From a virus: a stretch of 64,000 nucleotides of DNA. The stretch is from the IMG/VR virus record IMGVR_UViG_3300021961_007031; one strand, written 5' to 3'. Position 1 is the stretch's first letter. The number at the start of each line of letters is the position of its first letter. Below the pieces are notes generated by a model. The model was given only the letters and a program-made list of their open reading frames with translations, did not search any database and had not been told where the DNA came from. The translations under genes and the position numbers were made by a program. This document shows, in pieces, positions 39,142 through 59,985 of the stretch.

Positions 39142-39769
39142 AAGGTATTTTAGAGTTTACTTGTGGGGCTATGGTGGCGAACAGGTAGTAGGCTCAATTA
39201 CTAAAGAGCAGTATGAATTTTGGAAGGATATTGATGAAGAATATCTAATCTCTCATGCTTTTTGGGATCCTTGGGATGCTGGCGATGATAATCCTGTATA
39301 TGATGACACTGATCCAAGGTGGCTAGGTCAGTGGTATGAACTAGATGACATCTTACATGAAAATGGTGTTAATGTTTCTACAGCACAGGTAACAATTGAT
39401 GAATTGGAAGACGATGACTATGGTAGCAGAATCATTGACACTGTTATAGCCAACATGGATTGGCAGCGGTTTGTTGATGAGTACTATATACAACTTCCAG
39501 AGCCCGACAATCAAGAAGACGCAATCTACGACGCTGAGTATACTTTTCACGGCACAAGCGTAGAAAAGGGCTGTTTTGGTGAATATTATATAAAAACTGA
39601 TGGTGAAGATCTAAATATTAGTAAACTAGGTTTTTCCTTGACAATGACGCCAAATGAGGATATAATATTACAATTAACTGATTATGCAGGACAAGAGGTT
39701 GACAATGTTGGTGGTGATTCCAACGGAAAAGGTTATTATGCTAATGTTTACTCAAGGGACGAAGATTAA
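39134..39769 (+). CDS. acidic hypothetical protein
   Basis: GYGGE motif; very D/E-rich. Confidence 0.55.
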   Translation: MAERYFRVYLWGYGGEQVVGSITKEQYEFWKDIDEEYLISHAFWDPWDAGDDNPVYDDTDPRWLGQWYELDDILHENGVNVSTAQVTIDELEDDDYGSRIIDTVIANMDWQRFVDEYYIQLPEPDNQEDAIYDAEYTFHGTSVEKGCFGEYYIKTDGEDLNISKLGFSLTMTPNEDIILQLTDYAGQEVDNVGGDSNGKGYYANVYSRDED

Positions 39770-40221
39770 TGGCTGAAAGAGAAACCAACGACCAATATAT
39801 GTTGCGTATGTTGCGTGAAGAGGGTTTAAAGCAACGACTACGCACATCTAAAAAAATGATTTGGGTTACATTTCAAAAGGAAGGTATACACAAGTATCCT
39901 GCTGCACTGGAAGATCCTAAACTAGCAACCGGTGACGAATATGATGTAAGTTTCCTGGGTTATCCACACCGTCATATATTCCACTTCAAAGTTGCTATTG
40001 AAGTATTCCATGATGATAGAGATATTGAATTTATTCAGTTTAAAAGGTGGTTGACAAAATTATATGATCAGCGTACACTAGAACTTGATTATAAGTCATG
40101 CGAAATGATTAGTGATGACTTATATTTGCAGATACAGGAACGTTATCCTGGCCGTAATGTTGAAATTGAAGTTAGTGAAGACGGCGAAAACGGTAGTATA
40201 ACTTTTTATAACAAGGACTAA
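39769..40221 (+). CDS. dpdL: QueD-paralog T-fold protein, DpdL-like (putative CDG decarboxylase)
   Basis: EGIH, LGYPHRHIF (LxxxHRHxF), RDIEF, SCEM, VSEDGENG. Confidence 0.65.
   Translation: MAERETNDQYMLRMLREEGLKQRLRTSKKMIWVTFQKEGIHKYPAALEDPKLATGDEYDVSFLGYPHRHIFHFKVAIEVFHDDRDIEFIQFKRWLTKLYDQRTLELDYKSCEMISDDLYLQIQERYPGRNVEIEVSEDGENGSITFYNKD
40051..40079 (+). promoter_or_regulatory. internal sigma70-like promoter
   Basis: TTGACA-N17-TACACT. Confidence 0.45.
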
Positions 40222-40228
40222 AATTAAA

Positions 40229-40441
40229 ATGAAACCACAAGTTTCAAAAGTATTTGACGATTTAGACGATTTCCTACGTTTTTGTAAGACGTTTGGACAC
40301 CCTTATAACGAGGCTGACCTATACAACAACGATAGCGAAATATATCAGCAGTACCGTATGCTTAAAGAAGGCAAACGCATAAGTAATAATTGGATGCGTG
40401 ATGCAAAGATTCATGGACACAGGATCTTTGGTAACCGTTAA
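40229..40441 (+). CDS. hypothetical protein
   Basis: AAGGA SD. Confidence 0.55.
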   Translation: MKPQVSKVFDDLDDFLRFCKTFGHPYNEADLYNNDSEIYQQYRMLKEGKRISNNWMRDAKIHGHRIFGNR

Positions 40442-40746
40442 TGTCGGATCCAAGTCTTAAGTTTCCCAATGCAATTACAGTAAACGCCTCCAACTACACC
40501 GACAGGAAAAATCATCTTCCTGGCGAAGGTGGTGCTCTTAATGCTGGCTATACGCCCGTAGATGCATTATGTATGGTTAGCAATTTACTTGGCAGTCATG
40601 GTCTACGATATAATGTAGATTGGTGGTGGGATGGATTTGGTTACGGTGATTATACCATTAATGGTCCATCTTACACACTAAATTTAATGTTTGCTAAAGA
40701 AGAGCATCGTTTACTACTTGATTTGGGACTTAAGAATGCAGGTTAG
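40441..40746 (+). CDS. hypothetical protein
   Basis: Coupled ORF. Confidence 0.5.
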   Translation: MSDPSLKFPNAITVNASNYTDRKNHLPGEGGALNAGYTPVDALCMVSNLLGSHGLRYNVDWWWDGFGYGDYTINGPSYTLNLMFAKEEHRLLLDLGLKNAG

Positions 40747-41959
40747 TTTTATAGGGTTGGGCAAACTTGGTTTGCCATGTGCAGAGGAAATAGCAAAAAA
40801 AGGACACACTGTTCTGGGTTACGATGTAGCACCGGTAACAAGCGAACTTGTAGACATCAAAGACACATTAGCGGAAGCAATAAAGTTTTCTAAGATTGTT
40901 TTTGTTGCTGTTCCTACTCCACACGAAGCCAATTATGATGGCCGTGTACCAACGGCACATTTAGAACCCAAAGACTTCAACTACGACATTGTAAAACAAG
41001 TATTGCGTGAGTGTAATGAACTCATGTACTCTGCACAAATGATTGTGTTAATTTCTACAGTGCTTCCTGGCACAGTGCGTAGAGAATTCGTTCCATTAAT
41101 TACAAATACACGTTTTGCGTACAACCCATATCTGATCGCAATGGGCAGCGTTGCCTGGGATTTTTTAAATCCTGAGATGGTTATGATTGGCACAGAGGGT
41201 GGCGATACTACATGGGATGCACAACTACTAGTAGACTTCTACAAAACAGTTATTGATAATGATCCACGCTTTGTAGTTGGTACTTGGGACGAATGCGAAT
41301 GTATCAAAGTGTTTTACAACACATTTATCAGTACCAAAATTGGACTGGCAAATATGATACAGGATGTTGCAGTAAGGCAGGGCAATATCAATGTTGATGT
41401 GGTTACCCAGGCACTAGCAGAGTCAACTAAACGAATCATGGGCCCGCAGTATATGACTGCAGGAATGGGTGATGGTGGTGCTTGCCATCCACGGGACAAT
41501 ATTGCCCTGCGCTACATGGCACAAGAACTAGATCTAGGTTATGATTTGTTTGATGCTATAATGAATGCAAGAGAAAAGCAAGCACACAACCTTGCAAAAC
41601 ATTTAGTGGATTTAGCAAACGAAAATGAGATGGAAATCTATATACACGGCAAAGCATACAAGCCAGGTGTAGAATACATTGACGGAAGTTATAGTTTATT
41701 AATTGGACATTATGTACAAGAAATGGGCAAAAGTGTAACATACATTGATCCATTGACTGGTGATAATAACGAACCCAAGCAACCTTGTGTAGTATTGTTA
41801 GCCCATAGTGCAAGTACAACATACAAATATATGCACCAGGAAAGCAATACAGATAAATTATATTGTGTGATACCCATGGGAAGCATAGTCGTAGACCCAT
41901 GGCGCAAGTTCCAAAGTCACGCAAGCAAGGTAATACATTATGGCAATACGCGAGTCTAA
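40736..41959 (+). CDS. UDP-glucose/GDP-mannose dehydrogenase family
   Basis: GLGKLG, VAVPTP, STVLPGT, GGACHPRD, GKAYKP. Confidence 0.9.
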   Translation: MQVSFIGLGKLGLPCAEEIAKKGHTVLGYDVAPVTSELVDIKDTLAEAIKFSKIVFVAVPTPHEANYDGRVPTAHLEPKDFNYDIVKQVLRECNELMYSAQMIVLISTVLPGTVRREFVPLITNTRFAYNPYLIAMGSVAWDFLNPEMVMIGTEGGDTTWDAQLLVDFYKTVIDNDPRFVVGTWDECECIKVFYNTFISTKIGLANMIQDVAVRQGNINVDVVTQALAESTKRIMGPQYMTAGMGDGGACHPRDNIALRYMAQELDLGYDLFDAIMNAREKQAHNLAKHLVDLANENEMEIYIHGKAYKPGVEYIDGSYSLLIGHYVQEMGKSVTYIDPLTGDNNEPKQPCVVLLAHSASTTYKYMHQESNTDKLYCVIPMGSIVVDPWRKFQSHASKVIHYGNTRV

Positions 41960-42479
41960 GTGGCACATAGGCTATATAGATCCCTTTTGGGATAATGCAC
42001 ATCATATTTTAGATTATGAGTCTGAAACGTTTAACAATTCAGACGACATTATAAGTTGGATGGAAAAAGGGTATACTGCACCGTATGTAGGTGATTTATG
42101 CGACATGCGTAAACTACAAACATGGTATGCTACAGACTTAACACAAATTTTTACAAACATCTATGGCATTCAGGATGTTGGTACAAGTTTCTACAGAATG
42201 AGAACAGGCGTAGTTCTACCCCCACACCGCGATACCTACAAAAAATATCGTGAATTGTTTAATGTAGAATTACATGAAATCCAACGTATCGTAGTTTTCC
42301 TTGAAGATTGGCAATCCGGACATTACTTTGAAATAGAAGGCAAGCCGATTGTAAGTTGGAAACGAGGCGATTACATATGGTGGCGTGGTGACGCAGAACA
42401 TATGGCCGCTAATATTGGCGATCGTGACAGATACACTTTACAAATAACAGGACACGATGGATTACAACGTTTTAAATGA
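41940..42479 (+). CDS. 2OG-Fe(II) oxygenase-like protein
   Basis: PPHRD (HxD), EHMAAN, RYTLQI. Confidence 0.65.
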   Translation: MAIRESKWHIGYIDPFWDNAHHILDYESETFNNSDDIISWMEKGYTAPYVGDLCDMRKLQTWYATDLTQIFTNIYGIQDVGTSFYRMRTGVVLPPHRDTYKKYRELFNVELHEIQRIVVFLEDWQSGHYFEIEGKPIVSWKRGDYIWWRGDAEHMAANIGDRDRYTLQITGHDGLQRFK

Positions 42480-43059
42480 TTTCGAACAGGTGCTTAGTGA
42501 TTATACTGGAGCACCCTATGTTGTATTAACAGACAGTTGCACTCATGCTATTGAACTTTGTTTAAGACTTAAAAAGTGGCAGGGTCCAGTCATACTCCCT
42601 AAACGCACTTACATAAGTGTTCCTATGACCATGCACAAGTTAGGGTTGCCTATTTACTGGGACGATGAACTTGAATGGCAGCATGAATATAGAATTGCTC
42701 CTACAAACATCTGGGATAGTGCTAGAGCATTTGATAAAAACATGTATGTTCGGGGTCGTATGCAATGTTTGAGTTTTGGCTTTGATAAGCGTCTTAATAT
42801 CGGACATGGCGGTGCAATACTATTAGACAGCAGAGGCGATCACCATATCCTAAAACGCATGGCTTACGATGGAAGAGATTTAAGTATTAGTCCCTGGGAA
42901 AAACAAGGCGGATGGTACTTAGGGTTTCATTATAATATGCGATTAGAAGACGCCGCAAAGGGTATTGAAATGATGCAGAAGCCCGAGCATTTACCCAGTT
43001 TAGCCAGCCAAATTAAAACATATCCAGATTGCAGTAAAATTTCAGTTAATATTGACTAA
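42457..43059 (+). CDS. short DegT/DnrJ-family PLP aminotransferase
   Basis: DSCTHAIEL, WDSA, LSFGFDK, GGAIL, GFHYNM. Confidence 0.75.
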   Translation: MDYNVLNDFEQVLSDYTGAPYVVLTDSCTHAIELCLRLKKWQGPVILPKRTYISVPMTMHKLGLPIYWDDELEWQHEYRIAPTNIWDSARAFDKNMYVRGRMQCLSFGFDKRLNIGHGGAILLDSRGDHHILKRMAYDGRDLSISPWEKQGGWYLGFHYNMRLEDAAKGIEMMQKPEHLPSLASQIKTYPDCSKISVNID

Positions 43060-43102: not shown

Positions 43103-44566
43103 ATGGCAACCAGAGTTAATCTAAGCGAAAAGAATTATGACTACGCAGTGTTTACTCCTGCACTTAGCGGCTTTTATCAGAGTTATGTAAGCAAACAACA
43201 ACAAGACCCCAATCATGTAGAACAGTCTCGTATACCTGCAAAGTTTGAAAATGGTATAGAAGGACTTAACTTTCTCAATCCAGAGCAGGGCTACTTTACA
43301 TACAATCATGTACTCTACAGTGCTGGGCATGCTGAACTAGACATGGCTAAAGCAGTGGATCGTGAAAGCATGATCCATAAGCGTGACAGAGACAATACAG
43401 TGCTTATTGGTGACAGTGGCGGATTCCAGATCAGCAAAGGCGTTTGGCAAGGCAACTGGCTAGAGCCTGAAGGGCAATGTGCTGCTACAGACAAACAGCG
43501 TGGTACAGTTTTAAACTGGTTGGAAAATACAGCAGACTACAGTATGGTACTGGATATTCCTACAAATGGTTTAAACTTTGTTGACGAAAAAACTGGTAAG
43601 CCACGCTGTGGTTTGAATGACTACGCAGAGTTCCGCGACGCTACCAAGGCAAACAATAACTACTTCTTTAAACATAGACAGGGCAAAACAAAGTTCCTAA
43701 ATGTTCTGCAGGGCAGCACATACGAGCAAGCAGATGATTGGTTTGACAATGTATGCTTGCCTATTGTAAATGAAACAAGTGGCTGGGCATTTGGTGGTGT
43801 ACAAAAAACAAACCTTAACCACAGTTTAAGAAGGTTGCTATATCTCAAAGAACTTGGATTGCTACAAAAAGCAGAATGGATTCACTTCCTAGGTACAGGT
43901 AGACTTGATCAGGGTGTGATGTATACTGCAATGCAACGGGCTATTAGGAAGTCTATAAATCCAGACCTTACAATAAGCATGGATTGTGCAAGTCCATTTA
44001 TTGCTACAGCAAACGGCCAAGTGTACACTGACAATACATTTAATAACAAGCGTATTGGTTACAACATGGTACACATGGTAGACGAAAAGGATCCCGCACA
44101 CAAAGAAGCACCCTGGCCCTGGGACGACAGTCCTATTGGTGCTAGACTTACCTGGCGTGATGTTAACTGGTATGATCCAGGCGACTTAAACAAGATTGGT
44201 AAGGAAGGCAAAACCAGTTGGGATAGTTTTGCATACTGTTTAATGATGGGACATAACATCTACAAGCATATTGACTCAGTGCAAATGGCTAACCGTCTAA
44301 TGGCACGACCCATTGGTATGAATGAATGGATACCTGATCAATATCTACAGTTCCAGGAGCTCTGTGTAGACTTGTTTGCTAGAGATTACAACAAGAGCAT
44401 GGCTGCTATTGATGCAGAACTTGACAAGCATGAAGGTTTGATTAGTAAACTAAGCCGTATTAAAAATCTTAAAAACACAAACGCATTTGACAGTTTGTTT
44501 AGTTTTGATGTTCCCACAACCAACACTGATATAGACAGTAGCCAGGAAGAGGATGATGCTAGATGA
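43103..44566 (+). CDS. dpdA: TGT-fold DNA 7-deazaguanine transglycosylase (DpdA/DpdA2-like)
   Basis: GDSGGFQ, MVLDIP, NVLQG, GWAFGG, HFLG, SMDCASP; folE, queD and queE in the window. Confidence 0.78.
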   Translation: MATRVNLSEKNYDYAVFTPALSGFYQSYVSKQQQDPNHVEQSRIPAKFENGIEGLNFLNPEQGYFTYNHVLYSAGHAELDMAKAVDRESMIHKRDRDNTVLIGDSGGFQISKGVWQGNWLEPEGQCAATDKQRGTVLNWLENTADYSMVLDIPTNGLNFVDEKTGKPRCGLNDYAEFRDATKANNNYFFKHRQGKTKFLNVLQGSTYEQADDWFDNVCLPIVNETSGWAFGGVQKTNLNHSLRRLLYLKELGLLQKAEWIHFLGTGRLDQGVMYTAMQRAIRKSINPDLTISMDCASPFIATANGQVYTDNTFNNKRIGYNMVHMVDEKDPAHKEAPWPWDDSPIGARLTWRDVNWYDPGDLNKIGKEGKTSWDSFAYCLMMGHNIYKHIDSVQMANRLMARPIGMNEWIPDQYLQFQELCVDLFARDYNKSMAAIDAELDKHEGLISKLSRIKNLKNTNAFDSLFSFDVPTTNTDIDSSQEEDDAR

Positions 44567-45633
44567 GCACCATTTATATTATATGTCTGGAACCAATTGA
44601 CCAGAGATATACTAAACAGTGGTATACAAACATTCCCAATATACTGGAACAGCGTATTCAGGAACAGGGCTTAGATTATCAGGTAGTTACTATTGAAGGT
44701 GAGACTGTGCCTGACAACACAACAGCAGGTGCGTTCCTGGACTTTGGTGCTACAAATGTTTATAAAGCAAGCCAGACTGTAACTGTTAGCAAGATGTTCA
44801 GTGCAGGAGAAATTAAGCCTGGCGACAAGTTTTTGGTTACTGATGCCTGGAACTTTATTATTACACCTATCAAATACATGAGCGATTTGCTGGACATTCC
44901 AGTAGAAATACACAGTATCTGGCATGCTGGCGCATATGATCCTAGCGACATACTGGGCTACAAAATGAACAAGCCCTGGCCCTGGGAAGCAGAGCGCAGT
45001 TGGTATCACAGTAGCGATTACAACTATTACGCCAGTGAGAACCATCGCAGGATGTTCCTCAACAACTTAAACATTCCAGAAGAGTATCATTATAAAGCAG
45101 TGCGTAGTGGACAGCCACACGAACTGATAATTGCAGATCTTGTTAAACATCAAAGCACGCCTAAACAAAATCGTGTTATGTGGCCGCACAGATACAATGC
45201 TGACAAGCAGCCAGAGATAGCAGAAGACTTGAGCACTGATTTTGACATGGTAATCACACAAAAAATGAACTTGAGTAAACCTGATTACTATGCTACAATG
45301 GGTACAAGTAAACTTATTTTTAGTTGTGCATTGCATGAAAATCTTGGCATCAGTGTCATGGAAGCGGTGCTGACTGGAGCAATACCTGTTGTGCCGGATC
45401 GTTGCAGTTACAGTGAAATGTATTTGGATGAATTTAAATATCCCAGTGAATGGACTATCAATCAGGAGAGTTACGAAAAGAACAAACATAGAGTAGTTGA
45501 GTTTATACAAGACAAACTGGACAACTATTCTAACTATCATAACCTAATTCGTGAGCAACAGAGTATTCTTGTCCAAGATTATTTGAGCTGTGACGTTATG
45601 ATGGACAGACTATTAAACACGGAAGTTCAGTGA
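44563..45633 (+). CDS. GT-B glycosyltransferase coupled to dpdA
   Basis: WHAG, WPHR..DKQPE, ENLGISVMEA..GAIPVVPDR; ATGA overlap. Confidence 0.8.
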   Translation: MSTIYIICLEPIDQRYTKQWYTNIPNILEQRIQEQGLDYQVVTIEGETVPDNTTAGAFLDFGATNVYKASQTVTVSKMFSAGEIKPGDKFLVTDAWNFIITPIKYMSDLLDIPVEIHSIWHAGAYDPSDILGYKMNKPWPWEAERSWYHSSDYNYYASENHRRMFLNNLNIPEEYHYKAVRSGQPHELIIADLVKHQSTPKQNRVMWPHRYNADKQPEIAEDLSTDFDMVITQKMNLSKPDYYATMGTSKLIFSCALHENLGISVMEAVLTGAIPVVPDRCSYSEMYLDEFKYPSEWTINQESYEKNKHRVVEFIQDKLDNYSNYHNLIREQQSILVQDYLSCDVMMDRLLNTEVQ

Positions 45634-46397
45634 TGAAATTAGCTGTCTGTGGTGATTCTTGGGCTAGTATAGATAATAATGACCCATCATCTAGTTTTTC
45701 AGAGATACTGTGTAAAGATCATGGCTGGGATTTATATAACTTAGCTCGCCCAGGAGCAAGTAATTTTGCAATTTGTTTGCAAATAGATCAGGCAGTTAAA
45801 CTTGATGCAGATTTTGTAATAATAAGCACAACTACTCCTGGACGTATTGAAGTTCCTTTAAAAGGAAAAACATATGTAAAGGAACTAATAGGCAAGAATA
45901 TACATTATCCAGACACTAGGCAACCTGCAATATCAGACATAGGCAAAGAAATGATGAAAGATCCTACTATTGCTGTAGATGTACTTGGTAATTTTGAGAC
46001 TATATGGAATGAGGACTATAAAAAAGTTTTGCCAGAGACTTTCCTAGATACTTTAAAATCTTATGTTGTGGATATGTTTGACCAGAATATAAAATTACAA
46101 TATGATACATGGATTATGAGCGATGCATGTCGTAGGTTATTGGATAAGAAAGTTCCCTTTTTAATAATAATTGATTACTTATATAATGGCTACAGTGTAG
46201 GTGATCCTTATCATGATTTTGAAGTAGATTTAAATTGGATACCGGCGAAATATTTAATACACTATGACGATTTCGCATGGCATAGGGAAACTGTTGTTGA
46301 CAATAAACACTATTACCATTATAGTTCGTCTAGTGCCCAAAAAATAGCAGATTACATATTTGCAAGAATAAACAAAGTAAAGGAACTTAGTGCATGA
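45633..46397 (+). CDS. SGNH-like protein
   Basis: VCGDSW, GASN, C-terminal YH. Confidence 0.55.
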   Translation: MKLAVCGDSWASIDNNDPSSSFSEILCKDHGWDLYNLARPGASNFAICLQIDQAVKLDADFVIISTTTPGRIEVPLKGKTYVKELIGKNIHYPDTRQPAISDIGKEMMKDPTIAVDVLGNFETIWNEDYKKVLPETFLDTLKSYVVDMFDQNIKLQYDTWIMSDACRRLLDKKVPFLIIIDYLYNGYSVGDPYHDFEVDLNWIPAKYLIHYDDFAWHRETVVDNKHYYHYSSSSAQKIADYIFARINKVKELSA

Positions 46398-47083
46398 GAA
46401 ATACTTCCGAAAAAATTATAGAACGAATAAAACAAAAAAATGGACGCTACTGGGCTGGCGACAACATAAGCCAATATCTAGAACCAGGTGACAAAGAAGC
46501 ACTTATTGACGAACTTACTGGTAAGTTTGAAAGTGTTATAGATAGTTTGGTTATCGATCGTTATACAGATCCAAATAGTCGTGATACTGGCAGACGTTTG
46601 GCCAAGATGTACATTAAAGAGATAATGAGCGGCCGGTATAATCCTAAACCCAAAGCAACTGCTTTTCCTAATCATACTGATGAACCATATGATGGCATGC
46701 TGGTTGTGCGTAGTGAACTTAAAAGCATGTGCAGCCATCATCATCAACCAGTTGCAGGTGTCGCTTATATAGGTATTATTGCCGCAGATAAACTTATTGG
46801 TTTGAGCAAGTATACACGCATAGCGCAATGGTGTGCAAGGCGTGGTACACTACAAGAAGAACTTGCCATGGATATTGCAAGAGAAATTATGAATGCCACT
46901 GGCAGCAAGAACGTCGGCGTATATATACAAGCGACGCATGGCTGTTGTGAGAACCGTGGTATCATGGCACACAGTAGTCTAACACAAACTACAGTTTTGC
47001 GTGGCAGTTTCCATAATGATCCTGCTTGCAAGAAAGAGTTTATGGACAATATTAAATTGCAACAGGAATTTGCACCAAGATGA
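46394..47083 (+). CDS. folE: GTP cyclohydrolase I
   Basis: SMCSHH, GLSKY.R, LQEEL, HGCCENRG. Confidence 0.95.
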   Translation: MRNTSEKIIERIKQKNGRYWAGDNISQYLEPGDKEALIDELTGKFESVIDSLVIDRYTDPNSRDTGRRLAKMYIKEIMSGRYNPKPKATAFPNHTDEPYDGMLVVRSELKSMCSHHHQPVAGVAYIGIIAADKLIGLSKYTRIAQWCARRGTLQEELAMDIAREIMNATGSKNVGVYIQATHGCCENRGIMAHSSLTQTTVLRGSFHNDPACKKEFMDNIKLQQEFAPR

Positions 47084-47997
47084 AATTACTATTAACTGGC
47101 AGCAGTGGGTTTATAGGTCAGGCCATAACGCCTAGACTTGAAAAAGAATACGAATTACATCATTTGCAAAGTGATTTATTAAATCATGCTGATGTAAAAG
47201 CAGAAGTTGCAAATGTAAATCCAGACCTTATTGTACATTTGGCTGCTAGGACCGAAGTAGAAAAGAGTTTTTACGAGCAAATAAGTTTTAGTGAAGTCAA
47301 TTATATTGGCACACTAAACCTTATAGAAAGTGCTAAAACACTAAAAAATCTTAAAAACTTCGTATTTGCTAGTACAATGGAAGTTTACGGATGGCAGCCT
47401 ATTAGTGATGAAATCGAACACACTGGAACATATAAAACTAGAGTAGCATTTGACGAGAATACTATACCTAACCCAAACGCTCCTTATGCAGTAGCAAAGT
47501 ATGGATGTGAAAAGTATTTAGAGTACGCACATCGTTGTTTAAATTTGCCATTTACTGCTATAAGGCAAACTAATGCATATGGCAGACACGACAACGATTT
47601 CTTTGTTACAGAAGCAATTATTAGTCGCATGTTAAAAAATCCACACGAAATTGACATGGGTTACGCTAAACCTTGGCGTAATTTTATCTATGTTGACGAT
47701 CTTATAGAAGCATGGATGACAGTCATTACAAATCCAGAAAAAGTTAACACAGGTAAAATTTTTACTATTGGTCCAGATAACGCACTTAGTATAGAAGACT
47801 ATGTAAATATAATTGGAAAAAAACTTAATTGGCATGGTCAAATAAACTGGAATAAGCGTCCTACCAGAGATGGAGAGATTTATTGGCTAAACAGTAATCA
47901 TGATCTAATTACAAAAGTGTTAGGTTGGCAACCTAAAGTGTCAATAGACGAGGGATTGGATAAAACTATAGAAATATGGAAAATCAAACTAAGTTAA
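47080..47997 (+). CDS. NAD-dependent nucleotide-sugar epimerase/dehydratase
   Basis: TGSSGFIG, HLAA, YAVAK, RNFIYVDD. Confidence 0.9.
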   Translation: MKLLLTGSSGFIGQAITPRLEKEYELHHLQSDLLNHADVKAEVANVNPDLIVHLAARTEVEKSFYEQISFSEVNYIGTLNLIESAKTLKNLKNFVFASTMEVYGWQPISDEIEHTGTYKTRVAFDENTIPNPNAPYAVAKYGCEKYLEYAHRCLNLPFTAIRQTNAYGRHDNDFFVTEAIISRMLKNPHEIDMGYAKPWRNFIYVDDLIEAWMTVITNPEKVNTGKIFTIGPDNALSIEDYVNIIGKKLNWHGQINWNKRPTRDGEIYWLNSNHDLITKVLGWQPKVSIDEGLDKTIEIWKIKLS

Positions 47998-51623: not shown

Positions 51624-54600
51624 ATGAAAAAGTCGTTCTTCTTTGCGCTATTAGCGTCTATGTTGATCTTATCTGCTTGCCAAGGCGGCGGTGGTGATGC
51701 TATAAAGAAAAGGTTGGATCCACCACCAGAAGAACCAGTAAAACCTACACCACCTACTAATCCTAAACCACCGACTGATCCTCTTCCTCCATCAGTTTCT
51801 CCTTTAGCAGAAATTAGCGATGCGTTAAAGGAGTTGAAAGATAAAATAGAAGAGACAACTACTTCAGCAACTGTTCAGGCTATACTCAATCCTGATGATG
51901 AAGACCGACAGGATGCCAGGGAATTTGTTGTTATAATAGATAATGTATTGAACGAATGGAATACATACAAAAGAAGAATAGATGGCAATTTACTTTTAGC
52001 AAAAATGAACTCTTCTGAATGGCGCGAAGCAGAGGCAGTAATAAAAATTATTAGCGACTTACGGCCCAAATTTGACAATGTAGCAAATGGCGGAAGATAT
52101 GACACAGATGACTTTGAATTTTTGCTTACTGACGCAGCACTTGAACAAAGGATAGAACAGGAAAAAGCACAGATTCCAGTAATAGATAGGGGTTCATCTA
52201 CAGTTAGTTCAGTGGAGATAAGCAATGTTTCCGATGACATTGTTGAAACTTTGCCTGATATTATAGAAGATATTAACCTTGTGCGTAGCGGAGGTACCAG
52301 TATTAACGATCTAATACGCAAACATACATTTACTAGAGTTATAAAAGAACACAAAAGGTCAATACATAGAACAACTATTACTACTCAAAATGTTACAACT
52401 ATCAACTACACTGATGGCTCACCTCCTACTATAATTGTTTCTACACCAAGATCAGTGACCAATGAAACATCAACTGGCATAGTTACTGAAAAATCAAGAG
52501 AGGATATCGAGGAAGTAGTACCTTATACTACAAGACAGGAAGATACAGTAGTAACTGTAAGACAAGGCCGGCCTGAAGTTGTTGTAGAAAATACTGACCG
52601 TGTAGAAACTACTACAAATCCTGATGGTAGTATACTAAACACTACTATAAGGCGATCAGTTACCACTACAACTACGCCGGTTATCACTGAAACTATTAAC
52701 CCTAACATTACTGTATATGAGTATACAGATGGTCATAGGTTTAGTCATAACGATGGTGATATGGATATCTCAAGAAGTATAGAAAATATAGTTGATGTTG
52801 TTACTAATGAAACTATAGTACAAACTACAACTGAACATATAGTAGCATCAGAAACTACAACTAATGAAGTTGTAACACAAGTAACTGAATCTGATCCTGT
52901 ATTTGCAACTACATATGAAGACAGGACTACAACCTCTACTTCTAACAATATTGAAACAACTACAGTTACAAGGTATTATACAACTACTGCTACTGTAACA
53001 ACCACAACTACTACAAGTACCACACCTGTAACAGTACAAACATGGACAGATGGTAGAACTGATACCATTAGAGGCGAAACAGTAGTTACAGTAACAACAT
53101 CTGATACAGTGCAAACAGATAATTGGAATGTTGTAGTGAGTACTACTACACGAGAAGTAGAAGTTGTAAATGATGACGATCCCAATATGGGAACTCGTAC
53201 AGCAGGATATAATCCTGATCCTGTAAGTTATCGCACAACTGAATTTGCTGGTACAAGTGGCACAAACTACAAGTTAGCAATTAACGCAGATGTTGCTTAC
53301 TCTCGTGGTTGGACTGGCAAAGGTAGTTTGATCACCATTGCTGATACAGGATGGGATAGAGATCATCCTGATCTAGTTGGTGCAGTTAAGCATGAGTTTA
53401 ACACAATGACTAACGATACTACATTTATGGATGATAATGTAGGACACGGCAGTCATGTAATGGGAATTGCTGCCGGCCGTAAAAACGGATTAGGCACACA
53501 TGGTGTTGCATTTGATGCTGATGTTGCTGTAGCAAAAATTTCAGATAGTACTGGTTATAGTTTCCAAAGGGCTCTGGTTGCAGCAGCCTGGGCAAGAGAT
53601 CTTGGAAGTGTGGCTTTTAATGTTAGTGCAAACTATGCGGAAGACTTAGCATTCCAATACAGCATAACTGAATCAGGCACAAGAGGACTCAAGTACAGCA
53701 ACCATTACTACTATGGTGTAAACGGGTATAATGGCAGTGTAGTAGAGGCTCCATTATGGGCTACTGCATTAGGCAGCAATCAAATACTTGTTAACAGTGC
53801 AGGTAATTTGCGTAAGGACTATGTAAGTGGTAGTGCACAAATGGCTCACGCAACTGATGCAAATGGTAACCTAATATTAGGTGGCCGTATGATAATTGTT
53901 GGGTCATATGATACAGTTAATCAGCAGGTTGCAAGTTATAGCAACAAGGCTGGTACTGTGTGTGCAACCTGGGACTTCACAAACAATGTATGTAAAGACG
54001 CTGCTCGAGCAAGTGACTTTTACATTCTTGCTCCAGGTGACAATATCCAGAGTGCATACAAAGATGGAACTGACAGATTAATGAGTGGTACATCAATGGC
54101 TGCACCAGTTGTAACAGGTGCTATTGGTATCATACATCAGATGTGGCCACACATGATGGGTGCTAACCTTGTTCAACTATTACTTCTTACAGCAGACAAG
54201 GATCTTCCTGGATATGATGTAACTGTACACGGGCAGGGTTTGCTTGACTTGGACAAAGCAACGCAACCCGTGGGCGCCACAGGCATTCCTACAACAGGAC
54301 GCACAAGCGGTGCCATTGCTAACATTGAAACACTTAGCGGCGGCGCAGGCGTAGGCACTGTAAGCACAGATGCGTTCGCTGCATTAAGCAATGTAGCAGT
54401 GTTAGATAGTTTTGAGCGTGACTTTAGTGTAGACCTAAACAATGCTCAAGCAGTCGACACTCGTCCTGGATCACAAGTTGAAACTTTAAGTTTTGGAGGA
54501 ACCTATGACGGTTATTGGAATCTTGCTGGTGGTAGCGAAAAGTATATCATTAATGATGATCTCATAACCAGTTTTAAGTTTGATGAAGAAAACCAACTTA

Positions 54601-55205
54601 AAGGAGATTGGGGTTTAAGACTAGCATATGTACTAGTAGACAACTCAAGCACACAATTTGTTGCTAGCATTGGAATGGTTAAGGAAACAGACAAGTTCCT
54701 TAATAACACGCAACAAGGTTTTATGGGTGTTGGCAAAACACACATAACAAACTATGCTGGTGTAAATGTAAACCATAAGTTTGATGACAATTGGTTTGCA
54801 TTTGGTAACCTACAGTTAGGATTAACTGATGTTGAAAAGTCCAAAGAGTTTAGCCTAGTTACCGGTTACACTGACCTTGTAAGCAATAGTTGGGGCATTG
54901 GTGCTGGTTACCAGTTCGATAATGGATGGACGGTAGGCGCCAACTTTAGTCAGCCAATGGCTATTAGCAGTGGTAAAATGAACTACAAAGTGCCAGTAGG
55001 ACGCACACTTGACGGCGATGTATTATTCAATGAAGGAAGTGCAGATGCAAGTACGAAATATATTGAATATGACACTGGTCTTTTTGTAAAATATAACTTA
55101 AACGATATGTCAGTTGCTGGCTATGCTGAACATCGAGCAAATGTAGCCGGTATAAAAAATAACAACGAAGTGAATGTTGGTATTAAAGTAGACATTAAAT
55201 TTTAA
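51624..55205 (+). CDS. lipoprotein subtilisin (S8) protease with Thr-rich stalk and autotransporter-like C-terminal beta-barrel
   Basis: Lipobox LSAC; ADTG, HGSHVMG, GTSMAAP triad; amphipathic beta C-terminus ending in F. Confidence 0.85.
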   Translation: MKKSFFFALLASMLILSACQGGGGDAIKKRLDPPPEEPVKPTPPTNPKPPTDPLPPSVSPLAEISDALKELKDKIEETTTSATVQAILNPDDEDRQDAREFVVIIDNVLNEWNTYKRRIDGNLLLAKMNSSEWREAEAVIKIISDLRPKFDNVANGGRYDTDDFEFLLTDAALEQRIEQEKAQIPVIDRGSSTVSSVEISNVSDDIVETLPDIIEDINLVRSGGTSINDLIRKHTFTRVIKEHKRSIHRTTITTQNVTTINYTDGSPPTIIVSTPRSVTNETSTGIVTEKSREDIEEVVPYTTRQEDTVVTVRQGRPEVVVENTDRVETTTNPDGSILNTTIRRSVTTTTTPVITETINPNITVYEYTDGHRFSHNDGDMDISRSIENIVDVVTNETIVQTTTEHIVASETTTNEVVTQVTESDPVFATTYEDRTTTSTSNNIETTTVTRYYTTTATVTTTTTTSTTPVTVQTWTDGRTDTIRGETVVTVTTSDTVQTDNWNVVVSTTTREVEVVNDDDPNMGTRTAGYNPDPVSYRTTEFAGTSGTNYKLAINADVAYSRGWTGKGSLITIADTGWDRDHPDLVGAVKHEFNTMTNDTTFMDDNVGHGSHVMGIAAGRKNGLGTHGVAFDADVAVAKISDSTGYSFQRALVAAAWARDLGSVAFNVSANYAEDLAFQYSITESGTRGLKYSNHYYYGVNGYNGSVVEAPLWATALGSNQILVNSAGNLRKDYVSGSAQMAHATDANGNLILGGRMIIVGSYDTVNQQVASYSNKAGTVCATWDFTNNVCKDAARASDFYILAPGDNIQSAYKDGTDRLMSGTSMAAPVVTGAIGIIHQMWPHMMGANLVQLLLLTADKDLPGYDVTVHGQGLLDLDKATQPVGATGIPTTGRTSGAIANIETLSGGAGVGTVSTDAFAALSNVAVLDSFERDFSVDLNNAQAVDTRPGSQVETLSFGGTYDGYWNLAGGSEKYIINDDLITSFKFDEENQLKGDWGLRLAYVLVDNSSTQFVASIGMVKETDKFLNNTQQGFMGVGKTHITNYAGVNVNHKFDDNWFAFGNLQLGLTDVEKSKEFSLVTGYTDLVSNSWGIGAGYQFDNGWTVGANFSQPMAISSGKMNYKVPVGRTLDGDVLFNEGSADASTKYIEYDTGLFVKYNLNDMSVAGYAEHRANVAGIKNNNEVNVGIKVDIKF

Positions 55206-55657: not shown

Positions 55658-56091
55658 AATTTTTCAAAGACAGGAAAAGAATTATACTTGACAGAGTTGG
55701 TCAAAAGCCCTATTTGGTTAGGTATTATCTATTCCTAAAAGATCGCAAATGGTTTCCATTTAACATCTTTTTGCACAAGTTTTTACAAGGGGATCCAGAT
55801 GAACTTCATGATCATCCGTGGCCCTACTTTACACTTATACTACGAGGCGGTTACTGGGAGACTACACCCCAAGGACGGTTTTGGCGTGGTCCAGGACACA
55901 TGCGTATAAGTGGACCAAAAAGTCTACATCGTGTAGAATTAAAGCCTGGAACAAATGCATGGACTCTTTTTATCCCTGGCCCAAAACTTCGCGAATGGGG
56001 TTTTATTGTAAATGGCAAATGGGTGCATAATGAGAAGTATTTTGCATGGAGAAAGCAGAAGGTAAGAGATGAAAAAACTGTATCTATCTGA
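55654..56091 (+). CDS. cupin-fold protein
   Basis: LHDHPW..GGYWE..HRVEL. Confidence 0.6.
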   Translation: MKFFKDRKRIILDRVGQKPYLVRYYLFLKDRKWFPFNIFLHKFLQGDPDELHDHPWPYFTLILRGGYWETTPQGRFWRGPGHMRISGPKSLHRVELKPGTNAWTLFIPGPKLREWGFIVNGKWVHNEKYFAWRKQKVRDEKTVSI

Positions 56092-56617
56092 CAAACAAAT
56101 TCAAAAGGGCGTGCATGACATTGTACGCCAAATGTATCGTCATAACTGGCGTCCTGATTACATTGTAGGCATTACAAGAGGTGGATTGATTCCTGCCGTA
56201 ATGATGAGTCATCTAACAGGCATTCGAATGGAAACAATTGATGTCAGGTTAAGAGACTCTGACAACAGTCCCGAACATGCACTGTGGATGGCTGAAGATG
56301 CGTATGGATATGATGACAAAGACTACTACGATCCTGCAATGGGACACAATAAAACATCTGAAGGAAAGCGTAAAAAGATTCTTATTGTAGACGACATCAA
56401 TGACACTGGTGCTACATTTCAATGGATCAAAGAAGATTGGCAATCAAGTTGTATGCCACGTGATCCAAGTTGGAATAATATTTGGGGCAGTAATGTAAGA
56501 TTTGCTACTATAGTAAATAATCTTGCAAGCCCTTTTGAAATCAATTATACTAGTATTGAAATCAACAAAGCAGAAGAAGACACATGGGTTGTATTTCCAT
56601 ATGAGGAGTGGTGGTAA
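56069..56617 (+). CDS. type I phosphoribosyltransferase (Gpt-like)
   Basis: GITRGG, ILIVDDINDTGAT, WVVFPYE. Confidence 0.88.
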   Translation: MKKLYLSDKQIQKGVHDIVRQMYRHNWRPDYIVGITRGGLIPAVMMSHLTGIRMETIDVRLRDSDNSPEHALWMAEDAYGYDDKDYYDPAMGHNKTSEGKRKKILIVDDINDTGATFQWIKEDWQSSCMPRDPSWNNIWGSNVRFATIVNNLASPFEINYTSIEINKAEEDTWVVFPYEEWW

Positions 56618-56802
56618 TGCCCAAAGCAAAATATTCACCGTGCATCAGCGTATGCACAATAGGCGACGATGGTTACTGTTTAGGTTGTGCTCGTACACCT
56701 AAAGAAATAAGAGGCTGGCGAGACCTTACAGAAGAAGAACAATTAGACGGTATTGAAATGTTGCGTGAAAGACAATTTGAAAGAGCTAACAAAGGAAATT
56801 AA
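56617..56802 (+). CDS. DUF1289-like small Cys protein
   Basis: SPCISVC..CLGCART..EI..W. Confidence 0.75.
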   Translation: MPKAKYSPCISVCTIGDDGYCLGCARTPKEIRGWRDLTEEEQLDGIEMLRERQFERANKGN

Positions 56803-56807
56803 AACTT

Positions 56808-57377
56808 ATGTTTACTGAATATAAAGATTGGATTACAAACGGCAAACATTCAGAGGTGCTTGGAGAACTAATTCTTAGAGCAAGATGGAAATTTGGTCAA
56901 GTAAGTGATAATGAAATTGAACCAAACTTTCCAATGTGGTTTCAAAATTTTTATGATCCACGTTCCAAAGCATGGGGCACTGACGTGCCTGAAGTTGCTA
57001 AGGAGTTAACTGAAGAATTTATGAAACTTGTTCCTGAAAATTATATTCTTGTACGGAGTATGGCAAGTGCAAATACATTTGGGTTGGATGGAGACTGGCA
57101 CACTGACTGGCCTGACCCTGATACAAGTATTACTGGCGTTTTGTATACAGACAGAAATTGGGAAAGAAATTGGGGAGGTGAAACAGTATTTGTAGATGCT
57201 GATGGTAAAATGGTCGCAAGTGAGTATGAGCCTCGTAAATTAATTACCTTTGATGGCAGCATTCCACACATCGGCAAAGGGCCGCAACGCCGTTGCAAAG
57301 AAATGCGTAGTATTCTAGCATTTCAAGCAGTGGACGGAGATGTTCTCGAAAAAAGAATGCAACTTAATCTCAAATGA
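56808..57377 (+). CDS. 2OG-Fe(II) oxygenase
   Basis: WHTD, WGGET, IPH, R. Confidence 0.8.
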   Translation: MFTEYKDWITNGKHSEVLGELILRARWKFGQVSDNEIEPNFPMWFQNFYDPRSKAWGTDVPEVAKELTEEFMKLVPENYILVRSMASANTFGLDGDWHTDWPDPDTSITGVLYTDRNWERNWGGETVFVDADGKMVASEYEPRKLITFDGSIPHIGKGPQRRCKEMRSILAFQAVDGDVLEKRMQLNLK

Positions 57378-57380
57378 ATG

Positions 57381-57409
57381 TTGACTCGTCTAAATAAGTG
57401 TAGTATTAT
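57381..57409 (+). promoter_or_regulatory. composite promoter of queD
   Basis: TTGACT-N17-TATTAT with CGTCTAAATAA (57387-57397) in the spacer. Confidence 0.75.
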
Positions 57410-57415
57410 ATTAGC

Positions 57416-57472
57416 AAGAGGTCTAAAGTGTTCGTCCCTCTATAAACATTCCGCACACTCTTATCAAGGAGT
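57416..57472 (+). ncRNA. candidate preQ1-I-like riboswitch in the queD leader
   Basis: AGAGG-U..C-CCUCU-AUAAA core; loop AGUGUU can pair with tail AACAUU; ACUCUU/AGGAGU anti-SD hairpin. Confidence 0.5.
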
Positions 57473-57479
57473 ATAAACT

Positions 57480-57950
57480 ATGGCCAAATATATTAGTACA
57501 AAAACATACAGGCATTTAGGTCCAGTTGCATACAGGCAATGGAGAGCAGACAGTCATTGCAATTTAATCCATGGCTATGCACTGAGCTTTCACTTTGAAT
57601 TTGAAACAGACGATTTAGATGCTCGTAACTGGGTGGTTGACTTTGGTGGTCTAAAGCCACTAAAGAACAACCTAGAAGACTGGTTTGATCACACACTGCT
57701 AGTAGCACAGGATGATCCGGACCGGGATACTCTGTTGGACCTAGGCAAAAAAGGACTAGCAAAAATTACGGAAGTTGAAAAGACTGGATGTGAAGGTCTA
57801 GCAGACTTCCTTTATGAGTATGTAAACACAATATTCTTACCAAGTTGGGAACCTGGCACTAGAGTTTGGTGCTGTAGGGTTGAAGTAAGAGAAACCGACT
57901 CAAATATGGCTATGCGAGTTGGACACAGAGAAGATGGAGAATTTGAATGA
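57480..57950 (+). CDS. queD: 6-carboxy-tetrahydropterin synthase QueD
   Basis: HCNLIHGY, WVVDFG, FDHTLL, GCE, VRET. Confidence 0.88.
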   Translation: MAKYISTKTYRHLGPVAYRQWRADSHCNLIHGYALSFHFEFETDDLDARNWVVDFGGLKPLKNNLEDWFDHTLLVAQDDPDRDTLLDLGKKGLAKITEVEKTGCEGLADFLYEYVNTIFLPSWEPGTRVWCCRVEVRETDSNMAMRVGHREDGEFE

Positions 57951-58237
57951 CAATGTTTAAAGGTTTTTTAAAATGGTTTTTAGGTGATAGTGAGAAAAAA
58001 GAAGTTGAGTCTGTACCACAATATCTAACAGGCAACCAAACAGTTAAGCCAAAGGCTGCACCAAAGCCCAAAGCAAAGGAAGCAGTAAAGAAGCCTGTGA
58101 TTAAAGAAGAAGAACTTAAGAAGATGACTAAAAAGCAAATTGATGACTGGGCCGCTGGCGCCGGCGTTACACTTGATCGTCGTCTTACAAAAGATAAAAT
58201 GATTGCTGAACTAAAAAAGAGTGTAACTATATCCTAA
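57947..58237 (+). CDS. hypothetical protein with a Rho-N/HeH-like C-terminus
   Basis: LKKMTKKQI..LDRRLTKDKMI. Confidence 0.5.
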   Translation: MTMFKGFLKWFLGDSEKKEVESVPQYLTGNQTVKPKAAPKPKAKEAVKKPVIKEEELKKMTKKQIDDWAAGAGVTLDRRLTKDKMIAELKKSVTIS

Positions 58238-58238
58238 C

Positions 58239-59114
58239 ATGAGTTATGTGATAACTTATCCAGGTGGTGCTTATGGTAACTTTGTAGGTTTTACTCTAAG
58301 GTGGTTAATGGGCGAGTATCCAGTGGATTTTAGACCATTTACTAGTAAAGGCAATAGCCATAGTTGGAATGCTCAAATTGTTAAATTTGATAAAGTTAGT
58401 CTAGAAAACCTTGAACCAATGCTTGGCATAGACACTTTTGCTATTCTTCACCCTAAGGGTCAAAAGGATCACAACCTTATAGAACGTTTAGAGTTACTAA
58501 CCAAATGTTACGATAAAGTTATATACATATGTCCTAGATTTGAAGACTGTATTTGGCTATTAAATAATAGACAAACAAAAATATATCCAGAAGGTTGGAT
58601 AGAGCATTTCAAAAATAAGAATGAGTTTGCAAATTTAGATTCATGGGAATCAAGTACTAAAGAAATCTGGGAAGAGCGAGAATTTCTTAGCATTTACCTA
58701 TATGATCAATTATTATCAGAAACAGAACTAGCAAATATAATAGATTATAAAAATTATGATTCTAATAAAATTAAAATCATATACATGAATGATCTTAGAG
58801 ACAATTTTTCACTAACATTTAGATATCTTTGCTCATGGTTAAATTTAGAAGTGGTGCGCTCACAACTTGAGATTGACAATCTTGAAAAAGATTGGAAAAA
58901 TAATGAAAAATTTTTATTTAAGGATAGATTGATTGAAGACTTAGTTAATGCTACAATAGATAATAAAAATTTTCCAATGGAAAATTTAACTTATGTAGAT
59001 GAAGCAATGATGCAATGGAAGTTACGCAATAAAGGTTTTGAATTGAAGTGCTATAACCTTAATAAGTGGCCCGAAACAACAAGCGAATTGAGAGATCTTA
59101 TATATGAAAATTAG
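58239..59114 (+). CDS. hypothetical protein (AT-rich)
   Basis: YPGGAYGNF N-terminus. Confidence 0.5.
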   Translation: MSYVITYPGGAYGNFVGFTLRWLMGEYPVDFRPFTSKGNSHSWNAQIVKFDKVSLENLEPMLGIDTFAILHPKGQKDHNLIERLELLTKCYDKVIYICPRFEDCIWLLNNRQTKIYPEGWIEHFKNKNEFANLDSWESSTKEIWEEREFLSIYLYDQLLSETELANIIDYKNYDSNKIKIIYMNDLRDNFSLTFRYLCSWLNLEVVRSQLEIDNLEKDWKNNEKFLFKDRLIEDLVNATIDNKNFPMENLTYVDEAMMQWKLRNKGFELKCYNLNKWPETTSELRDLIYEN

Positions 59115-59985
59115 ATACACAGAAGCATTTTACAGTGTTCAAGGTGAAGGAAGATTCGTTGGCGTTCCCAGTGTTTTCCTTCGCATGTATGGCTGCAACT
59201 TTACTTGCCCAAAGTTTGGACTTGCTAGGAACGCCGACGCTAGTGAAACAGAAACAAGACTTGACGAAATTATCTATGAAACAACCAAGGCGTTTCCTGA
59301 GAAATATGACAGTATTGACAAATTGCCGCTTATGGAAACAGGATGTGATAGTTATGCTGCTTGGCATCCAGCGTTTAAGCATCTGCAAAATGATGTAGAT
59401 CTGGACACACTTGTAGATAGACTGCTAGCCCTAACTCCTAATGGTTGTTGGACACAGGAAAACGGGCAAGATGTGCATTTGGTTATTACAGGTGGCGAAC
59501 CATTGCTTGGATGGCAAAGAGTTTATACACAATTATTTGAACACCCACGTATGAAGGACTTAAAAAATGTCACTTTCGAAACTAACACCACGCAGCCTTT
59601 GCGAGAAGATTTCAAGACTTACCTCAACAATAATCAACAACTACATGTTACATGGTCATGTTCCCCAAAACTATCGGTTAGTGGACATGATTGGAATGAT
59701 GCTGTATTGCCTAGCATTGCTCGTAGTTACTGCGATGTTAATGGTAGCTACCTGTATCTCAAGTTTGTGGTTTGTGATGATATTGACGTGGCAGAAGTTG
59801 ACAGAGCTGTTGCAGAGTACAGAGCGGCAGGAGTTACAGGCTCGGTTTACATCATGGCTGTCGGCGGGACAACAAAAAGTTACTTCGCTAACGGAAAAAG
59901 TGTCGCAGAACTTGCACTCCAAAAAGGCTACTGCTACAGCCCAAGACTCCACGTCGACGTATTCGGCAACGCCTGGGGTACCTAG
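59104..59985 (+). CDS. queE: 7-carboxy-7-deazaguanine synthase QueE
   Basis: FYSVQGEG, FLRMYGCNFTC..GCDS, ITGGEP, ETN, SPKL, PRLH. Confidence 0.92.
   Translation: MKIRYTEAFYSVQGEGRFVGVPSVFLRMYGCNFTCPKFGLARNADASETETRLDEIIYETTKAFPEKYDSIDKLPLMETGCDSYAAWHPAFKHLQNDVDLDTLVDRLLALTPNGCWTQENGQDVHLVITGGEPLLGWQRVYTQLFEHPRMKDLKNVTFETNTTQPLREDFKTYLNNNQQLHVTWSCSPKLSVSGHDWNDAVLPSIARSYCDVNGSYLYLKFVVCDDIDVAEVDRAVAEYRAAGVTGSVYIMAVGGTTKSYFANGKSVAELALQKGYCYSPRLHVDVFGNAWGT

Follow-up and report, generated by a model that had tools for sequence, protein, structure and literature searches.

The 64,000-nucleotide stretch of viral DNA from IMG/VR record IMGVR_UViG_3300021961_007031, hereafter the window, encodes a 7-deazaguanine DNA modification system of a known type to which a glycosyltransferase (GT) has been added. 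It is proposed, with a probability of roughly 0.55, that phages bearing this DpdL-type module convert 7-carboxy-7-deazaguanine (CDG) to 7-deazaguanine, insert it into their DNA with the transglycosylase DpdA and then glycosylate it. The genes for FolE, QueD, QueE, a protein with the fold of a tRNA-guanine transglycosylase (TGT), a protein with an HRH motif and the GT all lie on the plus strand between 39769 and 59985, as a preliminary description of the window had reported.

In the proposed pathway FolE, QueD and QueE, whose genes are all present in the window, would convert GTP into CDG along an established route, and without QueC there would be no way onward from CDG to preQ0. A DpdL-like protein, in the role proposed for this family in the literature, would turn CDG into 7-deazaguanine, which a divergent DpdA, recognisable by its TGT fold and aspartate residues, would exchange for guanine in the phage DNA. 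A GT4-type GT would then draw on a nucleotide sugar to glycosylate the deazaguanine, in all likelihood once this base has been inserted into DNA, and the outcome would be a glycosylated deazapurine. In about one fifth of the lineages, including that of the window, an embedded UDP-glucose-type dehydrogenase (UGDH), a short-chain dehydrogenase/reductase (SDR), a cupin and a DegT-like protein are likely to modify the donor sugar, perhaps into an amino or deoxy sugar, and elsewhere a host nucleotide sugar would serve. More speculatively, an enzyme resembling xanthine-guanine phosphoribosyltransferase (XGPRT) might return the excised guanine to GMP and GTP, the substrate of FolE. The Cellulophaga phage phiST makes 2'-deoxy-7-deazaguanine (dDG) without any GT, and therefore the GT is regarded as an add-on that would act after synthesis and insertion of the base. 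The chances are about even for the wider proposal that hundreds of environmental large phages, together with the cultured phages PA5oct, ACP17, Phosso and BUCT-ZZ01, replace guanine with a glycosylated 7-deazaguanine, in which a dedicated DpdL-associated GT would form an unusual N- or C-glycosidic link to lineage-specific sugars drawn from an exchangeable kit.

Linkage of the glycosyltransferase to DpdL

The GT of the window (P0004; 44563..45633, plus strand) belongs to a DpdL-associated GT-B/GT4-like family. Its genomic neighbourhood was sampled in IMG/VR in four ways, with loci selected by the window GT, by DpdL and by two remote GTs, and the resulting 301 pooled loci, which are not all independent owing to near-duplicate contigs, cover several GT subfamilies and gene orders. 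Within 10 kb of the 80 GTs selected by the window protein, DpdL is present in 72 loci, FolE in 72, DpdA of the window's own type (P0003) in 60, a purine phosphoribosyltransferase (PRT) in 55 and QueE in 50, and in most of the eight loci lacking DpdL the contig upstream of the GT is too short to show it. Selection by DpdL gives a family GT just downstream in 71 of 80 loci, and in 41 of the 43 whose flank suffices. The two remote GTs behave alike: P0395, which is 26% identical to the window GT, is accompanied by DpdL in 55 of 61 loci, and P0381, at 18% identity, in 77 of 80, with DpdLs that are merely 31-41% identical to the best of four DpdL queries. Over all 301 loci DpdL is found in 284, the GT in 288, FolE in 245, DpdA in 221, QueE in 172, the PRT in 125 and QueD in 84. 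The linkage of the GT to DpdL is near-obligate; the GT genuinely belongs to the deazaguanine module and is conserved with it in viral contigs by the hundred and in no fewer than seven lineages of cultured phages.

The most common gene order is DpdA-DpdL-GT-FolE (135 loci), and the order of the window, DpdL-DpdA-GT-FolE, occurs in 20 loci. At the dpdA-GT junction of the window (AGATGAGC) the start codon of the GT overlaps the TGA stop codon of dpdA as ATGA, and the two genes also overlap or abut in PA5oct and ACP17. The coupling to dpdA, whose conservation the preliminary description had proposed to check, does not extend to the family as a whole. Only 8 of 211 loci have the GT directly next to DpdA, as opposed to 89 of 271 in which it directly adjoins DpdL, and therefore it is DpdL that constitutes the conserved partner of the GT.

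Cultured phages with and without the glycosyltransferase

A family GT adjoins DpdL in the PA5oct-like jumbo phages, in ACP17 and Phosso, in the Xanthomonas phages BUDD and X1, in the Burkholderia phage BCSR5 and in the Synechococcus phage BUCT-ZZ01, and the hosts of module-bearing cultured phages comprise Pseudomonas, Acidovorax, Xanthomonas, Burkholderia, Sinorhizobium and Synechococcus. The genes of PA5oct follow one another as gp168 (TGT-like), gp167 (GT) and gp166 (DpdL), with gp162 further on, and those of ACP17 as gp123 (DpdA), gp124 (GT), gp125 (DpdL) and gp126 (QueE). The window GT is 37% identical to PA5oct gp167, 31% identical to ACP17 gp124 and 43% identical to the GT of Phosso. The GT and DpdA-like genes of ACP17 and PA5oct are annotated as encoding hypothetical proteins, and no paper discussing these genes was found.

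QueC is absent from the complete genomes of PA5oct, ACP17 and Phosso as well as from GT-bearing contigs that are 90-99% complete, and a Pfam scan of about 60 of the larger open reading frames (ORFs) of the window detected neither QueC (PF06508) nor QueF or Gat-QueC; the complete relatives likewise yielded no QueF or Gat-QueC. This supports the preliminary description on both counts, the lack of these genes in the window and a pathway that ends before preQ0.

The DNA of phiST contains plain dDG in place of all G (PMC10516641); its DpdL locus carries no GT, and no tblastn match to the window GT was obtained from this phage. Expression in E. coli of dpdL and dpdA from phiST, or from ACP17 without its GT, yielded no dDG, and the authors suggested that further enzymes may be needed; the main text of their paper, in which ACP17 is named as a DpdL phage, contains no mention of any glycosyltransferase (PMC10516641). 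PA5oct DNA resists several restriction enzymes with G in their recognition sequences and is reported in a 2025 preprint to contain a modified G of undefined structure (PMC12191111). The phage is also targeted by nucleases that are directed solely at phages with hypermodified DNA, and the preprint, which leaves the base undefined, cites QueE and a 6-pyruvoyltetrahydropterin synthase (PTPS) alone (PMC12191111).

DpdL and the identity of the base

The DpdL-like protein (P0001) is a 150 amino acid (aa) member of the proposed CDG decarboxylase family encoded at 39769..40221 on the plus strand. It matches phrog_17812 (E 2.7e-36) and no Pfam family, and contains the sequence LGYPHRHIF. This fits LxxxHRHxF, the published signature of DpdL which stands in place of the CxxxHGH of QueD (Cui, Hutinet et al., NAR 2023, PMC10516641) and which the preliminary description had correctly named as the mark of this family. 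The protein shares 34.5% identity with the DpdL locus of phiST (CGPG_00067) over 77% of the query (tblastn, E 3e-11), 58% with ACP17 and 73% with Phosso (tblastn). Among 16 family members the residues H41, H67, H69, H81, E87, C111, E112, E137 and D138 are invariant, as is F71, and an alignment shows the HRH/His/Glu signature to be common to the GT-linked DpdLs and phiST DpdL. At least 595 DpdL relatives were detected in IMG/VR. The 383-aa gp176 of Vibrio phage Bakedbeans (L169:4251-5402) matches DpdL at its C-terminal end, so that in this phage some 250 aa of a further domain may precede DpdL in a single fused protein; this domain could hint at a partner of DpdL.

It is rather doubtful that DpdL of the GT-linked clade is something other than a CDG decarboxylase, and that it acts with the GT to turn CDG or its precursor 6-carboxytetrahydropterin (CPH4) into another base, so that the product is no dDG derivative. 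Such a base might, for instance, bear an added functional group to which the sugar is attached. The idea draws on the unproven activity of DpdL, on the failure of ACP17 or phiST dpdL and dpdA to give dDG, on the identity of only about 35% between the GT-linked DpdLs and phiST DpdL and on the lack of an obvious sugar acceptor in 7-deazaguanine. It is opposed by the signature shared with phiST DpdL, by the pairing of the remote GTs with DpdLs that are themselves 31-41% identical to the best DpdL query and by the lack of any extra conserved oxidoreductase from the module in the 301 related loci.

DpdA-like transglycosylase

The decarboxylated base favoured here would be inserted by a 487-aa DpdA-like DNA guanine transglycosylase (P0003) that is encoded at 43103..44566 on the plus strand and belongs to a divergent subfamily. 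No sequence match to this protein was found in Pfam, NCBIfam, PHROG or PDB. An AlphaFold2 (AF2) model built with 34 homologues (mean predicted local distance difference test, pLDDT, 84.5) retrieves solely tRNA-guanine transglycosylases from the PDB by Foldseek, with more than 200 matches at E ~1e-9, in agreement with the TGT fold assigned to it at the outset. D104 (in DSGGFQ), D151 and D294 (in MDCASPF) are invariant across the 34 homologues, and judging from the resemblance of the motifs D104 and D294 presumably correspond to TGT Asp102 and Asp280; the enzyme is taken to be catalytically intact. A DpdA 97% identical to it (P0005) is encoded on a 220-kb contig. The relation to the DpdA of ACP17 (hhalign 83%; BLASTP E 1e-4 over 192 aa) and to phiST DpdA3 (hhalign 57%) is merely distant, and on this account the protein is best treated as the representative of a separate, very large DpdA-like subfamily, in a search for which 7397 of 8000 scored candidates reached E 0.001 or better.

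The C-terminus of the DpdA-like protein (KNTNAFDSLFSFD) contains FDSLFSF (44486-44506) ahead of a disordered acidic tail. It repeats the end of the DNA polymerase of the window (33928-36579), which reads KNTFDSLFSFE (FDSLFSF at 36553-36573), and one F position of FDSLFSF is invariant in the 34 DpdA homologues. The peptide could be a shared clamp- or replisome-docking element that would place base exchange at the replication fork.

Structure and acceptor of the glycosyltransferase

The AF2 model of the GT (pLDDT 86.6) comprises the two Rossmann domains of a GT-B enzyme, and the closest structures among the Foldseek matches listed, with E between 1e-9 and 1e-8, are the GT4 enzymes PglA, BshA, MshA, PimA and glycogen synthase. 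The GT-B assignment of the preliminary description is upheld, and so is the overlap of start and stop codons that it noted. The protein, an apparently intact GT4-type enzyme, carries an E259-x7-E267 motif, of which E267 is invariant in 50 diverse members of the family and the first glutamate is replaced by aspartate in one subfamily. The Glycos_transf_1 family (PF00534) matches 43 of these 50 members with a best E of 4.6e-11; the window GT itself scores E 0.0038, below the cut-off. A profile search with the family recovered 738 clusters (50% identity) at E <=1e-30 and 1550 at E <=1e-10. The acceptor-side half has 15 columns that are at least 90% conserved in a family that ranges from about 18% to 55% in its identity to the window GT, and this conservation suggests one common acceptor.

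Kinship with the queuosine mannosyltransferase QTMAN/GTDC1 through the N-terminal domain was considered and rejected, as PF12038 remained unmatched (E up to 1) in 81 GT members and five phage records; a protein atlas returned solely viral and bacterial GT1-domain clusters for the GT, which lends QTMAN no support. Global charge was likewise discarded as a hint of DNA binding, for it is uninformative when the DpdA-like protein is as acidic as the GT.

Several observations tell against glycosylation of 7-deazaguanine in DNA. The top structural neighbours of the GT are small-molecule and lipid GT4 enzymes, and T4 beta-GT is not among the best Foldseek matches listed, at least 500 GT-B chains being matched. 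7-Deazaguanine has no hydroxyl, and a sugar would have to be joined to it by an N-, C- or O6-link, a type of bond uncommon among GT4 enzymes. With a pI of ~5 the GT is acidic, a point that is not decisive given the equal acidity of the DpdA-like protein, and no DpdL-GT or DpdA-GT fusions were found among longer proteins, which is weak evidence. The phages RHph_I1_18, Ahp1, Bakedbeans and D479 possess close DpdL relatives but no detectable GT. As for the decarboxylation step, DpdL is in the literature only a predicted CDG decarboxylase (PMC10516641). The preliminary description called the 39769 protein a second T-fold protein with LxxxHRHxF, and the motif is there; the T-fold relation was not reproduced here, with hhalign giving 4% for the DpdL family against the window QueD and PTPS being matched by 2 of 16 family members at E 0.086; the published HHpred value of 99.89% for the T-fold/PTPS relation belongs to the phiST protein (PMC10516641).

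The small-molecule character of the structural neighbours also bears on when the GT acts. It is conceivable, though unlikely, that the sugar is added before insertion, to the free deazapurine base or nucleotide, and that virion DNA ends up with plain dDG or its carboxylated counterpart dCDG. The sugar would then be transient or mark a soluble product, carried on a ring or exocyclic nitrogen in the manner of the huimycin enzyme HuiG. HuiG does glycosylate a free 7-deazapurine with UDP-GlcNAc, and the presence of a purine PRT in 125 of the 301 loci can be set beside tubercidin biosynthesis, which uses a PRT on CDG. Yet phiST makes and inserts 7-deazaguanine without a GT, a soluble glycoside would be of no obvious benefit to the phage, and the pocket of a TGT-type enzyme is unlikely to take a base that already bears a sugar.

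Sugar-nucleotide genes

For glycosylation of the inserted base, as preferred here, a donor sugar is needed, and the preliminary description had assigned its supply to the flanking sugar genes. An NDP-sugar (UDP-glucose type) 6-dehydrogenase, the UGDH (40691..41959, plus strand; PF00984, PF03721, TIGR03026), is followed by a cupin-like protein (41940..42479, plus strand) with a weak match to Asp_Arg_Hydrox (E 0.003) and by a compact 200-aa DegT/perosamine-synthetase-like protein (42457..43059, plus strand; PF01041 E 1.5e-13). An SDR-type NDP-sugar epimerase/4,6-dehydratase (47080..47997, plus strand; PF01370 E 3.6e-39, TIGR01181 E 3e-32) lies on the other side of the GT, and the window also encodes a phosphomannomutase (PMM)-like protein of the haloacid dehalogenase (HAD) type. 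The DegT-like protein aligns to residues 41-98 and 178-255 of perosamine synthetase, skipping about 80 residues, and one of its lysines aligns with the K of the GNK segment of the perosamine synthetase chain. The DegT-like gene is conserved in 37 related loci and stands nearly always within the module.

Across the pooled loci the genes fall inside and outside the core span in the proportions 12 to 7 for UGDH, 16 to 3 for the cupin, 33 to 3 for the DegT-like protein and 36 to 20 for the SDR. Of the 269 loci that contained three or more core genes, 56 (21%) had at least one of these four genes inside the DpdA-to-FolE span, and the density of sugar genes was 6.3 per 100 kb inside the span as compared with 1.7 outside, a 3.7-fold enrichment. 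The genes stand in differing orders in different lineages. PMM was never found inside the core span (0 inside versus 14 outside). Of the genes to which this role had been assigned, UGDH, SDR and DegT are, as a group with the cupin, enriched in the module, where they are optional, and PMM is not associated with it. The sugar kit is read here as an optional, exchangeable donor-sugar module, and it may be speculated that the combination of UGDH, SDR and DegT-like protein, by its resemblance to known routes, leads to amino-pentoses or amino-deoxy sugars. A 601-aa B12-binding radical S-adenosylmethionine (SAM) protein is encoded between the SDR and the PMM-like gene (47976-49781) and matches a KedN5-family C-methyltransferase model with E 4.5e-51, far below the cut-off; it is present in 1 of the 301 related loci and is probably not part of the module.

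At the DNA level the UGDH gene is closest (68-70% identity) to genes of Synechococcus phage Bellamy, of a marine virus record and of Pelagibacter phage HTVC008M, none of which turned up in the tblastn matches to DpdL, DpdA or the GT. This kinship fits an arrangement in which the GT and the sugar genes have nothing to do with deazaguanine and merely share an early or DNA-metabolism operon with the module, serving a different base of the DNA, a protein of phage or host, or a precursor of the cell envelope. Sugar-nucleotide genes are frequent among the auxiliary metabolic genes of marine phages, the usual acceptors of GT4 enzymes are lipids or small molecules, and neither PMM nor the B12 radical SAM gene shows a tie to the module. 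The linkage to DpdL, which persists at about 90-96% across GT subfamilies only 20-25% identical and across unrelated phage groups while the other neighbours change, makes a merely shared operon an unlikely explanation. It is further weakened by the GT overlapping or abutting dpdA in three lineages and by the window, where no gene of a pathway to hydroxymethylated pyrimidines such as hydroxymethylcytosine (hmC) was seen among the ORFs covered by the Pfam scans.

Comparison with known systems

The system described here shares with phiST (PMC10516641) the FolE/QueD/QueE trio, a DpdL with LxxxHRHxF, a TGT-fold transglycosylase, a QueD with CxxxHGY and the lack of QueC. Unlike the window, phiST has no glycosyltransferase, purine PRT or sugar genes, and plain dDG is what it has been proven to make; the DpdLs of phiST and the window share about 35% identity, and the 259-aa DpdA3 of phiST is only marginally related to the window DpdA (hhalign 57%). 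ACP17 and PA5oct have GTs of the same family (31-37% identity), DpdL (58% identity) and a GT that abuts or overlaps dpdA. In contrast to the window, neither has an embedded kit of UGDH, cupin or DegT, and ACP17 possesses a different DpdA subtype (BLASTP E 1e-4).

The alpha- and beta-GTs of T4 and the GT-A and GT-B enzymes found in metaviromes (10.1101/2023.12.21.572611) provide a parallel, in that some have GT-B folds and genes for sugar activation cluster with the GT. These enzymes transfer sugars from nucleotide sugars to the modified base 5-hydroxymethylcytosine (5hmC) after replication (bioRxiv 10.1101/2023.12.21.572611). Their acceptor is the hydroxyl of the pyrimidine 5hmC, and they are found near thymidylate-synthase-like or TET-like genes, whereas GTs of the window family are found near DpdL and FolE, and the nearest folds of the window GT among the best Foldseek matches listed are those of GT4 enzymes and not of T4 beta-GT. 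A chemical precedent is provided by HuiG, a GT4-type enzyme from a GT family matching PF13439 that glycosylates a free 7-deazapurine in huimycin biosynthesis; it sits in an actinomycete secondary-metabolite cluster without dpdA. QTMAN/GTDC1, likewise of the GT4 type and linked to mannosyl-queuosine in tRNA, differs from the window family by its QTMAN_N domain (PF12038), which is not matched there, and its acceptor is a hydroxyl of the queuosine cyclopentenediol, which the module-bearing phages cannot make.

Full-text searches, whose reach extended neither to the tables in the supplement of the NAR 2023 article nor to a 2024 MMBR review, found no paper on glycosylated deazaguanine in DNA. To our knowledge all known glycosylated DNA bases, namely glucosyl- and arabinosyl-hmC, base J and the recent hmC glycans, are derivatives of pyrimidines. 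If the proposed pathway is correct, its product would be the first purine in any DNA to bear a sugar and a new class of DNA hypermodification, with a bearing on restriction, CRISPR, glycosylase-based defence and the sequencing of phage DNA. It would also address the failure of dpdL and dpdA alone to give dDG in E. coli and the identity of the modified G in PA5oct, a candidate therapeutic phage. As the module is abundant (at least 595 DpdL relatives in IMG/VR; 1550 GT clusters), the base may be widespread in aquatic viromes. The presence of a purine with a sugar in phage DNA is judged likely and easily tested, and the cultured phages that carry the module make the question accessible now.

Other genes of the window

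The enzymes of CDG synthesis are encoded downstream of the GT on the plus strand. GTP cyclohydrolase I (FolE; 46394..47083) matches PF01227 with E 7.6e-40 and NF006824 with E 8e-40, the QueD-like CPH4 synthase (57480..57950) matches PF01242 (PTPS) with E 8e-16, and the QueE-like radical SAM CDG synthase (59104..59985) matches phrog_2076 with E 1.4e-48, while NCBIfam models of QueE match only its N-terminus (E 1e-8 to 1e-10, below the cut-off). The motif of the window QueD is CNLIHGY. ACP17 and phiST likewise have a QueD with CxxxHGY in place of the canonical CxxxHGH, so that this phage QueD group has the third zinc-ligand histidine exchanged; the idea that HGY is an anomaly of the window was rejected because phiST and ACP17 share it.

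In the closest relative locus (L005) FolE directly follows the GT and QueE directly follows QueD. In the window both pairs are split by ORFs without a recognised family, one of 255 aa between GT and FolE (45630-46397) and two of 96 and 291 aa between QueD and QueE (57947-59114), which are lineage-specific insertions relative to L005. ORF o211 (39134-39769) was considered as a hidden pathway enzyme and set aside, as it gave no family, PHROG or atlas signal.

The purine PRT, of the xanthine-guanine type, is encoded at 56069..56617 on the plus strand (PF00156 E 3.4e-15; NF006613 E 8e-12; PDB 1vdm E 5e-11), and in BUCT-ZZ01 an annotated XGPRT is placed between QueE and QueD. As an alternative to the recycling of excised guanine, this enzyme might ribosylate a deazapurine, by analogy with tubercidin biosynthesis.

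Nearly all long ORFs of the window lie on the plus strand and its G+C content is about 35-43%. The gene content is of the type found in large marine phages, with PhoH, a PstS-like protein, TctA, DnaJ, a ClpB-like ATPase, a DNA polymerase and a 5'-3' exonuclease. The host-like auxiliary genes are gathered at 1268-18439, where PhoH, the PstS-like phosphate-binding protein, the TctA subunit of a tricarboxylate transporter and DnaJ are encoded together with a 755-aa ClpB/ClpA-like double AAA+ ATPase. A 1193-aa subtilase is encoded at 51624-55205, and a 984-aa protein at 22207-25161 carries a cytidylyltransferase-like domain at its N-terminus and, in an unusual combination, a lytic transglycosylase (SLT) domain as well.

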